Below, piece by piece: positions 34,201 through 41,418 of a DNA stretch of 64,000 bases. The stretch covers positions 8,370,001 through 8,434,000 of the forward strand of contig CAIIXF020000001.1 in NCBI GenBank assembly GCA_903813345.2. Direction: 5' to 3'. How positions within the stretch are numbered: the stretch's first letter is position 1; each line of letters begins with the position of its first letter. The translations under genes were made by a program, and so were the position numbers. This stretch comes from Owenia fusiformis. Lineage: Eukaryota. The notes beneath the pieces were generated by a model that was not told where the DNA came from, did no database searches, and saw only the letters and a list, made by a program, of their open reading frames with translations.

Positions 34201-37200
34201 TTTGAATTTTATGATTATTTTGAAATTCATCAATTTCAAAAATTATTATTCTTGCAAAATATATTTCAATTTCAGGTGAATTATGACATGCATGCTTTCC
34301 TGGAGAAGAATCGTGACACACTAGGGGTGAATATAGTTGAGTGTATGCAGAATAGTGACAGTCAGATCGTAGCTGATTTATTTACTCCAAATGGATCATT
34401 TGAAACCAAGTAAGACATGATTTTAGATTTCCAGGTTTTAGATTTAAAAAGTTTTTACAAAAATTAGCTAAATTGTGACAAGTGAATGATTTTATGTCTT
34501 TTACTTATTTTTTAATAATAAATAATACATTTTTTTCAAAAGATAAGATTTATCTTTGTCACAATTAATACTTCTTAATATACATACTGTTTTAAATTCA
34601 AAAATAATTTTATTGTGAAAACAAAATTCACCTTGTATTTATATATTTGTATGGTTGTGTGTATTATTTGTAGCAACAATTCAATGCAGAGAACTAGAAA
34701 GTCAGTGCTCTACTGTAAAGCTCCAGATCCAAAACGGTTTGAAAGTTTGTCAAGAAAAGCAGCAAAAAAATTGCTCAAAGAAAAGTAAGTTTTAATTTCA
34801 ACTGCTTATTAGACGAGTACATATTCTGCCAAGATGTTTTATTAGTTATTTTATTGGTGAATGGTGAATAGGGCCATGTTGCTACTTTATATCACCAGCA
34901 TTCCTGGTGGTTATAAAGTCTTCAGATCACATTCTTTAAGGAGAATATGAAAGTCAGATTGTATTTTGAAAAAAACTGAACAATATATTTTTAAGAATAC
35001 AACACAACCCCAAAAATTTGGATTTAGAAAACTGCACAACCCAAGAAATTTGGATTTCAAATAATCAATTTTGTAGAAATCCCAATAGTATGCATTGGGG
35101 GGAGGGCTACAATATTTGTATCCAAAACTTAACCTAGCATATTATGTTTATACTGAATAATGTAATGAGTTTGTATTTTAGAGCTAAGCATTCCGGTGCA
35201 CCTGATTCAGCAGTACAGAAAACAGTCAGTGCCTATTTCACAGTAAGTAAAACTTTAACATTTGTTTAATGAAAATTATTGTCTATATTGTATAGTGTTA
35301 TTAATTCAGTACTACAGGCCTTGTTGTAGAGAAAGCTCATAGTGTAAATTCACTTTATTATTAGGCTTTAACTTTTTTAATAACTACTTTATTGCTTCTT
35401 GTAGAGTTCCCTGACTGAACTGATGAGGAAATTGCTGGAAGCTGAGCCACAGTTTATTAGGTCAGTTCATGTATATACAACTTGTATATCGCCAGAAATA
35501 CAGACTGCTGGACTTATTCAGTTTTAGTTCACACCATGGATCAAATTTTTTTGTTTTATGCACAACAGTGAATTTAGTAGTTTCTTCTTGGGATATGTGT
35601 TTTATTTTTGTAACATTTAGAGTATTTAGTTGATCTTTATCTTGAATGAAGAAGTAAAAATGTATGAATATGTTTTGTTATTTATTAATATATTTTTAGG
35701 TGTATAAAACCAAACACTGATCAAAGACCAAACATATTTGACTCCCGAATAATCCTCCAACAGTTGCGTTACACTGGGGTTCTAGAAACAGTGAGGATTA
35801 GACGGATGGGCTTCCCTACACGCTTGCCTCTGGAGGTGTTTGTAAAGCGCTACAGAATTATTGCATTTTCTTTCACTGGTCACGTGGAGCCCTCACACGG
35901 CAACTGTCGCAGAATCATAAACAAAGCGAACCTTCACAATTGTGAGATTGGAAAGAATAAGGTGAGCTTTATAATGACATATTGCCAGTGATACTACAGT
36001 GAAACCTGTATAATCTGAACAGTTCTGAATGCCGATGGGACCAGTCAAAAGTATTTGGATTAGCAGGTATTCACATTTCAAGGTTTTTTATAGGTCAATG
36101 GAAGATAAGAAATTTGGTACCAAGCAAAAGTGTTCACATTGAGAAGTAATCGAATTAGATACATGTTTGGATATACAGGTTTCATTGTATTATGTAATCA
36201 CAGGCCTGTTATAAGTGCTAGACCAGGATGTTTATTCTGAATCTAGTACTATATATACAGAGATAATCTTTGTACTTTCACATAAACATACCACTTGACT
36301 GTGCAATACAGTATCTTGTTGTGTTGTAATAATTCTTGGAACCCTTCTAAGATAGCACTTTGTCCTGGCAAACTTAGATAGTTTAACTGCTAAAGACGTT
36401 ATTGTATCACCACGCTTGTTAATAATAGAAACACCTTGATAAATGGTTTTAAATCAATTACCACTTCATACATTGGAAATGATAGTATTTGTGTGATAAG
36501 GAGGGAACTTCAGCTTTCTTAGAAAATCTCATCCATTCTATGATATGTAAACATTTTATCTCATATAATTATCAACAATTGTGAAAGAATGAAGTTAATT
36601 TTGTTTGAGGTGGGTAATGAGTGAGGAGTGCTAATTATTTAATACTCAAGTGAAGGACATATCAACATTTTTAAATTTCTCTATATGAGGGGAGGGGAGC
36701 AAACCATAAAAAATTCATTTCTCCACAACTGTTGATTAATGGACACAATCCCTAAAATAAAGTATGTTTAATCTCTGTTATTTTCTTGGAATTTTACAGG
36801 TGTTCCTGAAATACTGGCACAATGAGCAACTTGACCTTTGTCTGGACAGGGTCATTAAAGACATTGTATTTGTGCAGTCATATGTGAGGGGATTCCTGGC
36901 TAGGAAACGTATAAAAGTTATCTTAGCTAACGTGCACAGGTCGAAGAGTCTGTTGTCAACATTCATGGTGATGTTATCTCAGGATACAGAGAGGTTGTTT
37001 TATACAATGAATTCACAAAGAGAGCATGATGCAGCGAGACATGAACGAGAGGTAACGATTGCAGCTTTTCTTTATTTTTAAACGTACATGTTCAGTAAAT
37101 ATATATATCTTTTATTGACTCTTAGAATGTCATGGTATGACACATTAGTCAGTCTCATTAAACGTGAGTAAGTGGAACACCTTTTGTACCTCTAAAAAGT

Positions 37201-40200: not shown

Positions 40201-41418
40201 ATATATTCATATACAAACTGTCACAACCAAACCAACAAGCATCTAATCTTTGCTCCTTACCTCCCTACTAGATAGTACACTTTATAATTTCAGTATTGAT
40301 GGAGGTACAGAATCTCTCCCATCTGAATCTTAACCGCCCTCAGTCCTCAACTTCACAGAGTAGTCACTCTCAGGATCCACCCCCACAGAGACACAGGTCC
40401 TATGCATACAGGGACTCGCCACAGAGGAGCTCACGTCATCAACGCAATGAACTCAGAAAGCAGGGAAAAGTAGTTGGGGATCATGATGAGTACAGTTGGC
40501 ATGAAAAATATTATGGTAGGTCATAATTGATGCCTTGATGGAATATTTATTTTGGTAAATATTTTTGTTAGTAAAGTGCAATTAATCCTAATGAATTGGT
40601 TTTGATCAATACAAACATGCTCTACTTCAAATCGAAATAATGGAAACCCATCTCATCTGTTTTGAGGGTTAAAACTTTATCTTTGGAATAATCTGGGTAC
40701 ACCAACAACAAAAAAACAACTTAAAAACATCTTGGCTTAACAATCTCAAGATCAGGATACAGGATATATCACTAACTTACGTATCTCCCTAAAGCTCTAC
40801 TGGGCATAAGATATTGCGTTTTATTGGAGGTTACAATCTTCACATTTTGTCCTATTTATTATCTGCTCTTGAGGATATATTATCTAATGACTGCAAATGT
40901 GCTGGAATTTGCCTTGATGAATTCTTATTCTAATACTGAACATGTATAAAATTATCTTATTGAGATATTTGTGTTTAGATTCACCCATGCCTCGCAGGAG
41001 CTTCAAGATGAAGAACTCAAAGATAGAAGAGGAACATGAAGAAGACAGAGCAAGTTACTACAAGGGACCTGGTAATACTTAAGTTTATGATTTTCCATAT
41101 GGCCATTTAATTTCATGAAAAAATATCACTTGATAACTTGTATACCAGTTGTCAGATTTGGTACAAATGTTATGTGCCATCAGCTGCCTTGTTATTTCTG
41201 TCACATAGTCTAGTTCTGATGAAGTATTCCAAAAAACATTTTTTAATTTGTACTTTTATTATGTAATTGCAGATTTTGTGGATTCCCTTGTGCAGGATAG
41301 ACGGCCCTTTAGTTATACAGAGCCATCTGTTGTGCCCCAGGGAAATGCATATGGCAACAAATATAACCCTATCAGAGTAAATTCATCTCCACGCAAGAAC
41401 TGGGCCAAGTTTAAATAG
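22282..41418 (+). CDS. Unconventional myosin: myosin-III-like motor without kinase, IQ motif, Expansion/Rebuf-type MH2 domain; 25 coding exons, about 1292 aa
   Basis: GT-AG exons that join in frame (3879 nt): 22282-22389, 23448-23652, 24460-24551, 25630-25744, 25986-26133, 26415-26650, 28949-29020, 29501-29639, 29868-30087, 33655-33822, 34276-34409, 34674-34784, 35182-35242, 35405-35460, 35700-35961, 36800-37051, 37459-37742, 37907-38078, 38276-38433, 38664-38736, 39404-39562, 39756-39948, 40294-40515, 40979-41071, 41273-41418. Motifs: [13 protein letters not shown]-loop GESGAGKT, switch [11 protein letters not shown], switch [34 protein letters not shown]-like [12 protein letters not shown]. 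Confidence 0.92.
24666..25531. mobile_element. PIF/Harbinger-like MITE in myosin intron 3
   Basis: ~45-bp TIR GGGGCGGGGTCAAAATATC(A/G)ATGTTCATATGGAGACGAAAGTA; 3-bp TSD TTA on both sides. Confidence 0.85.
26692..28713. mobile_element. Non-autonomous TIR element with internal ~300-bp tandem repeats (myosin intron 6)
   Basis: TIR CAGGCCCGTCAGA / TCTTACGGGCCTG, flanked by ATATA on both sides. Internal units start near 26819, 27141, 27430, 27754 and 28055, each with two AAAGTGCCCAGA-containing halves. Confidence 0.8.
30746..32471 (-). CDS. Nested antisense gene: secreted Tyr/Ser/Lys-rich repeat protein with C-terminal chitin-binding type-2 (CBM14/peritrophin-A-like) module, about 213 aa
   Basis: Exon 1 32471-32407 encodes signal peptide [17 protein letters not shown] and ends at a GTAAGT donor. 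Exon 2 31322-30746 follows a TTCCAG acceptor in frame: [15 protein letters not shown] repeats x4, then ...[36 protein letters not shown] (minus strand) at 30583-30588. Confidence 0.88.
32531..32538 (-). promoter_or_regulatory. TATA box of the nested gene
   Basis: TATAAAAG on the minus strand, about 30 nt upstream of an Inr-like TCAATCT (~32505) and about 60 nt upstream of the ATG. Confidence 0.7.
38276..39948 (+). other. MH2 (SMAD-like, Expansion/Rebuf-type) domain exons of the myosin
   Basis: Spliced peptide [103 protein letters not shown]...KPVKVFDMKEF...[30 protein letters not shown] follows the MH2 pattern W..I...E / IDG / NxNR / R..IGRG / KxF / SFV / TPCWI. Confidence 0.85.

Follow-up and report, generated by a model that had tools for sequence, protein, structure and literature searches.

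Can a myosin motor and an MH2 domain of the type known from the insect proteins Expansion and Rebuf (Exp/Reb) be parts of one protein, and what would such a protein mean for the history and the role of Exp/Reb? The question is raised by a stretch of 64,000 nucleotides from the annelid Owenia fusiformis (assembly GCA_903813345.2, contig CAIIXF020000001.1, positions 8,370,001 to 8,434,000 of the forward strand), which is called the window below and in which all coordinates are counted. An earlier inspection of the letters of the window (the sequence-only reading) had proposed a myosin fused to an Exp/Reb-type MH2 domain, which could carry or position chitin synthase along microvillar actin. The follow-up analysis revealed one annotated gene for a protein with this architecture, and the MH2 domain turned out to be a member of the Exp/Reb branch. 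Phylogenetic trees make it fairly probable that the Exp/Reb proteins of Ecdysozoa are descendants of a myosin-MH2 lineage that lost the motor. Published work is cited by its PMC number.

The myosin-MH2 gene and its product

One myosin-MH2 gene was found on the + strand at 22282-41418, with 25 coding exons leading from an ATG at 22282 to a stop codon ending at 41418. The splice was built by script from tblastn matches and an exact splice search. All introns of the model are GT-AG, and the spliced translation is identical, letter for letter, to the database protein P0001 (1292 residues, "unnamed protein product [Owenia fusiformis]"). A query with the last MH2 exon retrieved a single protein, again P0001, for which the precomputed Pfam domains are Myosin_head and MH2. 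Myosin-motor, IQ and MH2-like pieces were also seen on the + strand among the stop-to-stop reading frames between 34 and 44 kb.

Exons 1-15 (22282..35961, + strand) encode the myosin motor domain (residues 1-709). The motor is complete, i.e., Pfam Myosin_head (PF00063) matches residues 9-713 with profile positions 2-679 of 679 (E = 1.5e-212). The P-loop (GESGAGKT), switch I (NSSRFGK) and switch II (DIAGFE) are all readable in P0001, and the motor looks intact for catalysis. The motor begins at residue 9 without an N-terminal extension, and Pfam detected no Pkinase domain in the protein. Within exon 16 (36800..37051, + strand, residues 710-793) the motor ends, and the exon further encodes one IQ motif, a conserved segment behind it and the start of a charged helix. 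The single IQ motif comprises residues 731-748 (about 36863-36916) and scored 20.6 bits with the exon alone and 16.8 bits in the protein. The charged helix is about 30 residues long and is split over two exons; exon 17 (37459..37742, + strand, residues 794-887) contributes the remaining part and then a poorly conserved linker. The linker continues in exon 18 (37907..38078, + strand, residues 888-945), the final residues of which open the stretch that is homologous to the N-alpha helix of Exp. Relatives from molluscs, echinoderms, hemichordates and cnidarians share a conserved neck, which corresponds to residues 710 to about 811. Similarity ends around residue 811, and it resumes, to the relatives as well as to Exp-like proteins, around residues 940-945.

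The Exp/Reb-type N-alpha-MH2 domain (residues 946-1139) is encoded by exons 19-22 (38276-38433, 38664-38736, 39404-39562 and 39756-39948, + strand). Pfam MH2 (PF03166) matches residues 962-1127 with profile positions 2-172 of 174 and scores 94.9 bits (E = 8.4e-27), where the cut-off is 25. When the four exons were scanned singly, each gave a weak match (12-21.6 bits), and these matches follow one another along the profile in exon order (positions 2-35, 40-65, 65-104 and 115-173). Exons 23-25 (40294-40515, 40979-41071 and 41273-41418, + strand, residues 1140-1292) encode the tail, which is basic and rich in Ser and Arg, extends for about 150 residues after the MH2 domain, contains a YSW motif and has PRKNWAKFK at the C-terminus. 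An MH1 domain (PF03165) was not detected in P0001 at E <= 0.01. The motif SSXS, the phosphorylation motif of receptor SMADs, is absent from the C-terminus; the protein ends with NWAKFK, 165 residues past the MH2 match. Apart from Myosin_head, IQ and MH2, Pfam found only a weak AAA_22 match at the P-loop, and chitin synthase and transmembrane domains were absent.

The span 36800-41418, to which the sequence-only reading had drawn attention, corresponds to exons 16-25. As it had claimed, the exons at 38276-39948 splice in frame, after motor, IQ motif and charged helix, into a complete MH2 domain in a protein with neither MH1 nor SSXS. The observation was thereby confirmed; only exon 18, between charged helix and MH2 domain, had been missed.

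Motor and MH2 domain could also be encoded by two genes side by side, which gene prediction and the sequence-only reading would have merged into one. Some relatives are indeed annotated with one part only: the models from Capitella (P0200), Helobdella (P0214) and another one from Solemya (P0227) contain only the motor, and those from Solemya (P0004) and Ridgeia (P0012) only the MH2 domain. Moreover, the continuity in Owenia rests on a single annotated gene model, a point that counts against the fused gene. However, the frame is open through all 25 exons, the phases are compatible, and neither a stop nor a start is needed between motor and MH2. The same architecture was present in 37 of the 120 best motor matches, across six phyla, and complete motor-to-MH2 frames were found on contigs of 3.5-5.5 kb that are apparently free of introns (P0010, 1139 residues on 3802 nt; P0131, 1352 residues on 4235 nt; P0215, 1234 residues on 4228 nt). 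Such contigs are too short for a multi-exon gene like that of Owenia, which covers 19 kb, and thus they appear to be transcripts. In addition, the motor-MH2 architecture had been described independently in two myosin surveys (PMC3942036, PMC5583752), so that an annotation chimera is highly improbable. The motor-only and MH2-only annelid and bivalve models still grouped with the fused family in the trees described below and are probably split or truncated annotations. It may be such models with the MH2 domain alone that were counted as "Expansion" of annelids or molluscs in earlier work.

The type of the MH2 domain

When all solved structures were searched with the sequence of the Owenia MH2 domain, the best relative was 4r9p (117.4 bits, E = 6.5e-33), which is the N-alpha-MH2 domain of Drosophila Expansion (PMC4388265). 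SMAD1, 2, 3, 4 and Mad reached only 31-40 bits (best 40.5 bits, E = 2.5e-9), and SMAD7 19 bits. Residues 3-192 of the Owenia domain were aligned to residues 44-236 of 4r9p, and the L3 loop was ungapped between the flanking strands; in Mad and SMAD1 this loop is longer by six residues. This difference agrees with the loop lengths of 11 residues in Exp and 17 residues in SMADs given in section 3.3.2 of PMC4388265. The alignment to Exp began 14 residues upstream of the SMAD alignments, in the region of the N-alpha helix, and the similarity extended back to about residue 940. In PMC4388265 Exp is distinguished from SMADs by this region, by the L3 loop and by the missing SSXS.

Next, the fold was predicted with AlphaFold2 for a domain of 194 residues and an alignment of 46 rows, which resulted in a predicted local distance difference test score (pLDDT) of 96 and a predicted template modelling score (pTM) of 0.91. 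The top match of the model in Foldseek was again 4r9p (template modelling score (TM) 0.95, root-mean-square deviation 1.9 Å, 33% identity), a match that is not fully independent, because AlphaFold2 may have had 4r9p in its training set. The SMADs matched with TM values of 0.72-0.78, and SMAD7 with 0.65. A helix is present at residues 2-10 of the model, before strand 1; the folded piece started inside the expected N-alpha helix, and thus the full length and the packing of this helix lie outside the model. The ESM Atlas was also tried, and it was discarded as a discriminator, because a cluster of SMAD6 and clusters with the generic name "MH2 domain protein" scored alike (0.93-0.94).

Word-based homologue searches with the MH2 domain yielded only Owenia and Lingula, and further relatives surfaced in a HMMER search of 1.84 billion representatives, which yielded 449 proteins at E <= 0.001. 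The best 150 of the 449 were examined, and none of these carried an MH1 domain. Myosin_head together with MH2 was present in 14 of them, MH2 was the sole domain family in 132, and the remaining four were short and had no family at 1e-5. In the 132 MH2-only proteins the domain is mostly located near the N-terminus, as in Exp/Reb, and some of them also match the related IRF-3 model in the same stretch. The best 150 include the Expansion orthologue of Drosophila rhopaloa (P0033), which scores 521 bits to 4r9p. Also in the total set of 306 retrieved proteins no MH1 domain was found.

Sequence, L3 length and predicted fold thus place the Owenia MH2 domain in the Expansion/Rebuf (N-alpha-MH2) branch and not in the SMAD branch. 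The sequence-only reading had judged it nearer to Exp/Reb than to the signalling SMADs, and this judgement was borne out by the scores (117 versus 40 bits), the L3 length, the lack of MH1 in all of the 150 best matches, the phylogeny and the predicted fold; the four MH2 motifs that it had quoted were all found in P0001. The Owenia domain and Drosophila Exp/Reb are alike in MH2 subtype, L3 length, similarity in the N-alpha region, predicted fold and grouping in the trees. The proteins differ in their arrangement: in Exp/Reb the MH2 domain is N-terminal, a motor is lacking and specific tail motifs are present, whereas in the Owenia protein the MH2 domain is C-terminal to the motor and these motifs are absent.

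A role as SMAD-like signal transducer, with the MH2 domain in TGF-beta-type signalling, receptor phosphorylation and trimerisation, could be suspected because the fold is MH2 by Pfam (PF03166) as well as by Foldseek and SMADs are detectable relatives, but the SMADs differ by MH1, SSXS and the longer L3 loop, and the domain is far nearer to Exp, which neither joins TGF-beta signalling nor forms trimers (PMC4388265), so that such a role is hardly credible.

The myosin-MH2 family and the probable descent of Expansion/Rebuf

The family was defined by a search with the motor (residues 1-720), and the best 120 proteins, with lengths of 710-2261 residues, were listed. Species names were available for 28 of the 37 proteins with motor and MH2, and these were from two annelids, one brachiopod, 12 molluscs, nine echinoderms, two hemichordates and two sponges (Corticium and Dysidea). 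Look-ups of sequence clusters added further MH2 myosins from gastropods and from two cnidarians. Neither an ecdysozoan nor a chordate MH2 myosin was found among the 120 best motor matches or in the cluster look-ups. The Owenia gene is therefore the annelid member of a family that is present also in sponges, cnidarians, echinoderms, hemichordates, brachiopods and molluscs. The automatic NCBI names of these proteins are "myosin-IIIa/b-like". The next motors after the MH2 family were those of SH2-tailed myosins, including an Owenia paralogue (P0257), of kinase-bearing myosin III and of myosin XVI. The true Myo3 proteins among the 120 best matches carry PF00069 and PF07714, whereas the Owenia protein lacks the N-terminal kinase that is typical for them.

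The architecture as such has been described before, as the sequence-only reading had suspected of the myosin surveys. In PMC5583752 (Kollmar & Muehlhausen 2017) class-80 myosins were defined, which are restricted to echinoderms and hemichordates and in which the motor is followed by a short neck and, at the C-terminus, by an MH2 domain. Their annelid and mollusc relatives were left as unclassified "orphan" myosins and were placed beside or within class 36. The Owenia protein has the same motor, short neck and C-terminal MH2 domain as the class-80 myosins and the lophotrochozoan orphans. In PMC3942036 (Sebe-Pedros et al. 2014) Myosin III-like myosins with a C-terminal MH2 domain were reported for Salpingoeca rosetta and Oscarella carmela. 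These share the architecture and the Myo3-like motor group with the Owenia protein; the trees of the present analysis were calculated without a choanoflagellate sequence. P0001 is best explained as the product of one real gene, an unconventional myosin of the Myo3-like group and of the class-80 type.

How are the solo MH2 proteins related to this family? From the 306 proteins 145 full-length MH2 domains were obtained, and after the removal of 32 near-copies (at least 85% identity) 113 rows remained. All MH2 trees were unrooted and were calculated without SMAD rows. In a quick tree of the 113 rows the 66 motor-less proteins formed one clade (support 98), which was joined to the MH2 domains of the lophotrochozoan myosins (98), and the ambulacrarian (93), sponge and cnidarian rows fell outside of Lophotrochozoa plus the motor-less clade. 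All 13 labelled species of the motor-less clade were ecdysozoan, i.e., nematodes (Trichuris, Rhabditophanes, Caenorhabditis, Romanomermis, Auanema) and arthropods (Tetranychus, two Varroa species, Blomia, Drosophila, Chilo, Loxostege, Tuta). Two motor-less proteins (P0011, P0159) contain two tandem Exp-type MH2 domains, and both copies were found in this ecdysozoan-type solo clade.

A careful tree was calculated with 62 chosen rows (five non-bilaterian, eight ambulacrarian, 21 lophotrochozoan and 28 ecdysozoan), for which the three longest and the unlabelled rows had been omitted. The joint clade of Lophotrochozoa and Ecdysozoa was again recovered, with 98/98, next to Ecdysozoa with 100/98 and Ambulacraria with 95/88. 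When seven more rows were dropped, five from annelids because of their fast evolution and two because of their length, the resulting 55-row tree had the order (non-bilaterians, (Ambulacraria, (Lophotrochozoa, Ecdysozoa))), with 90/88 for the protostome node.

The motors were analyzed in a quick tree of 54 rows without class-36 rows, for which only the Shimodaira-Hasegawa-like approximate likelihood ratio test (SH-aLRT) was used. The bilaterian MH2 myosins formed one clade (100), which consisted of Lophotrochozoa (95, including Owenia) and Ambulacraria (93). Outside this clade were Myo3, Myo16, the SH2-myosins and the MH2 myosins of sponges and cnidarians. The split into Ambulacraria and Lophotrochozoa indicates that the root of the fused gene is not inside Lophotrochozoa. 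The similarity to SMADs was also compared: the MH2 domain of Solemya reached 51 bits and that of Owenia 40.5 bits, while no SMAD match was obtained for the C. elegans protein at E 0.01 or for Drosophila Exp at 1e-5. A stronger SMAD similarity of the lophotrochozoan domains is expected if the ecdysozoan branch is derived. As a separate observation, the motors of myosin XVI were on the MH2-myosin side of a split with support 97, apart from Myo3 and the SH2-myosins; there they formed, together with the MH2 myosins of sponges and cnidarians, a group without resolved order.

On the trees and on the complementary distributions, it appears somewhat more probable than not that the ecdysozoan Exp/Reb proteins are motor-less descendants of the myosin-MH2 lineage. 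Several results weigh against this descent. First, an approximately unbiased (AU) test did not reject a grouping of Lophotrochozoa with Ambulacraria that leaves out Exp/Reb (delta lnL 5.26, p 0.361). Second, since SMAD rows were not included, the root of the MH2 tree relies on the motor tree and on the fit to the species tree. Third, the tails differ. The Exp/Reb tails contain the motifs EDPYS, KPKLPPRD and DDPYYCGLRARVPNF, with the strongest conservation around DDPYYCGLRARVPNF. These motifs, including the region of strongest conservation, were absent from the myosin tails in phmmer searches and matched only solo proteins, and a comparison of the Exp/Reb and myosin tail profiles with hhalign characterized them as unrelated (probability 0.04). 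The conserved region presumably corresponds to the published CM2, for which the text of the paper gives no sequence. The myosins have tail motifs of their own, i.e., an alignment of 34 myosin-MH2 relatives revealed YSW and PRKxWAK[VI]K motifs that are common to the lophotrochozoan and the ambulacrarian proteins.

The myosin-MH2 fusion is already known (PMC5583752, PMC3942036), and the Owenia gene is already represented by an annotated database protein. The kinship of the myosin MH2 domains with Exp/Reb looks new, as far as the literature searches reach: a paper joining MH2 myosins and Exp/Reb was not found in searches that covered neither subscription journals nor supplementary files. The accessible text of PMC5583752 has 0 matches for Rebuf, CG13188 and Smad, and the word myosin has 0 occurrences in that of PMC4388265, PMC9894549 and PMC4305360. 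In PMC3942036 it was proposed that SMADs arose from a myosin MH2 domain, and Exp/Reb are not discussed in the passage concerned. In the Exp literature the family is described as ecdysozoan or protostome (PMC4388265, PMC4305360), and in PMC4305360 Exp/Reb are described as invertebrate-only (arthropods, nematodes etc.) and, with regard to organised chitin, as "a new invention". Any mollusc and annelid "Exp" sequences in published supplementary alignments may be tails of MH2 myosins. If Exp/Reb do descend from a widely kept myosin tail, the partner of the MH2 domain would probably be older than the ecdysozoan cuticle, and the motor would supply the localisation that is supported by CM2 in flies. 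Annelids, molluscs and brachiopods would then be test systems for the placement of chitin on microvillar templates, and a lead to the function of the class-80 and the orphan MH2 myosins would be gained.

Possible roles and neighbouring sequences

A mechanism can be proposed in which the motor would place or hold the protein on bundles of apical actin, to which the N-alpha-MH2 domain, as a protein-binding module, would recruit partners. The linker between charged helix and MH2 domain would be flexible. The motor would replace CM2, which supports apical localisation in Exp/Reb and is absent here. In Drosophila Kkv-dependent chitin translocation needs the N-alpha-MH2 domain of Exp/Reb, while localisation does not need it; CM2 contributes to apical localisation (PMC9894549).

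Which partners could be recruited? It is quite conceivable, although short of probable, that the protein is a cargo myosin of actin protrusions or of the cortex with MH2 partners that have nothing to do with chitin, and that the chitin role of Exp/Reb was gained after the loss of the motor in Ecdysozoa. In line with this, the nearest motors beyond the MH2 family belong to SH2-myosins, Myo3 and Myo16, the family is well conserved in the nine echinoderms and two hemichordates among the 120 best motor matches, and the Exp-specific tail motifs are missing, while the myosins of lophotrochozoans and ambulacrarians share motifs of their own. The breadth of the family suggests that the ancestral role was wider than chitin. 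However, the MH2 domain has kept 33% identity and a nearly identical predicted fold to Exp, the family has been retained in chitin-rich phyla, and its motors have been reported beside the chitin-synthase myosins (PMC5583752).

The alternative is a dedicated "motorised Exp/Reb", the main job of which would be chitin deposition and the motor of which would carry or position the MH2 domain together with chitin synthase or cofactors on microvillar actin, in parallel to the myosin-chitin synthase fusions. This is regarded as possible but rather unlikely. It is favoured by the Exp-type of the MH2 domain and its grouping with the ecdysozoan Exp/Reb clade. Furthermore, kkv together with exp/reb suffices for ectopic chitin deposition (PMC4305360), which adds to the requirement of N-alpha-MH2 for chitin translocation. 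The lophotrochozoan MH2 myosin motors were reported beside or together with the class-36 chitin-synthase myosins (PMC5583752), and in annelid chaetae chitin is polymerised on actin-filled microvilli; a chitin synthase of Owenia, OwfuCS3, has been described (PMC11149249). The class-36 myosin-chitin synthases of molluscs, annelids and rotifers resemble the Owenia protein in being lophotrochozoan and in having tails that relate to the chitin machinery (PMC5583752), but, unlike these, the Owenia protein lacks chitin synthase and transmembrane domains. Class-36 motors were not present among the 120 best motor matches, the length window of which (710-2261 residues) may exclude them.

Several points speak against a dedication to chitin. 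A physical interaction of Kkv and Reb was not found in Drosophila (PMC9894549), and a role in chitin deposition has been demonstrated only for the Exp/Reb proteins of the fly, not for MH2 myosins. The tail motifs of Exp are absent from the myosin tails. The distributions do not match either, i.e., the family has been kept in Ambulacraria, sponges and cnidarians, and it was not found among the 120 best motor matches for chordates, which are reported to have chitin synthases. Echinoderms and hemichordates are not known to have a chitin synthase; both groups are unmentioned (0 occurrences) in a survey of animal chitin synthases, and the literature searches yielded no statement either way.

By analogy with Exp/Reb, the MH2 domain of the Owenia protein may, as a tentative proposal, enable extracellular chitin deposition in chitin-making tissues, e.g., on the microvilli of chaetoblasts. 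Still more doubtful is the wider view that a lophotrochozoan "motorised Exp/Reb" beside the myosin-chitin synthase fusions lays down chitin on microvilli in chaetae, shell and radula, with Exp/Reb as the motor-less remnant of an ancient myosin tail and not an ecdysozoan invention.

A further observation concerns intron 9 of the myosin gene, in which an antisense reading frame of 210 residues was found (30749-31378, - strand). It contains about four copies of a unit rich in Tyr, Ser and Lys (period of 33 nt, 4.7 copies) and its end matches the chitin-binding domain Peritrophin-A (CBM_14), at profile positions 16-48 of 53 and with 23.1 bits, where the cut-off is 22.1. The frame is preceded by an AG and followed by a stop codon and AATAAA. 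It has the look of a final exon, and the nested gene to which it would belong would encode a secreted protein that binds chitin and is possibly part of an adhesive or of the tube matrix. Its location would fit a chitin role of the myosin, but the presence of a chitin-binding frame inside this gene may be a coincidence.

Additional genes were detected in the window. Exons for a homologue of the myosin chaperone UNC-45 are located on the - strand (50144-52696), downstream of the myosin gene at a distance of about 9 kb. Tetratricopeptide (TPR) repeats are present, and the exon for the central domain matched C. elegans UNC-45 with 46 bits (E = 3.6e-11). Two reading frames of 596 and 283 residues, which overlap by about 60 nt, were found further downstream (60898-63476, - strand). 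They encode an adenylation domain of the nonribosomal peptide synthetase (NRPS) type, for which AMP-binding scored 207.7 bits, and a PP-binding carrier domain. Their best solved relatives are bacterial (linear gramicidin synthase, 308 bits), and they could belong to an animal enzyme similar to Ebony or to a gene that came from bacteria. The last example is a frame of 894 residues (9784-12468, + strand) within a G+C-richer block at about 6-18 kb. It contains a zinc knuckle and a borderline match to Asp_protease_2, an aspartyl protease of the retroviral type (24.1 bits, where the cut-off is 24.3), and it is probably the gag-protease region of a retrotransposon.

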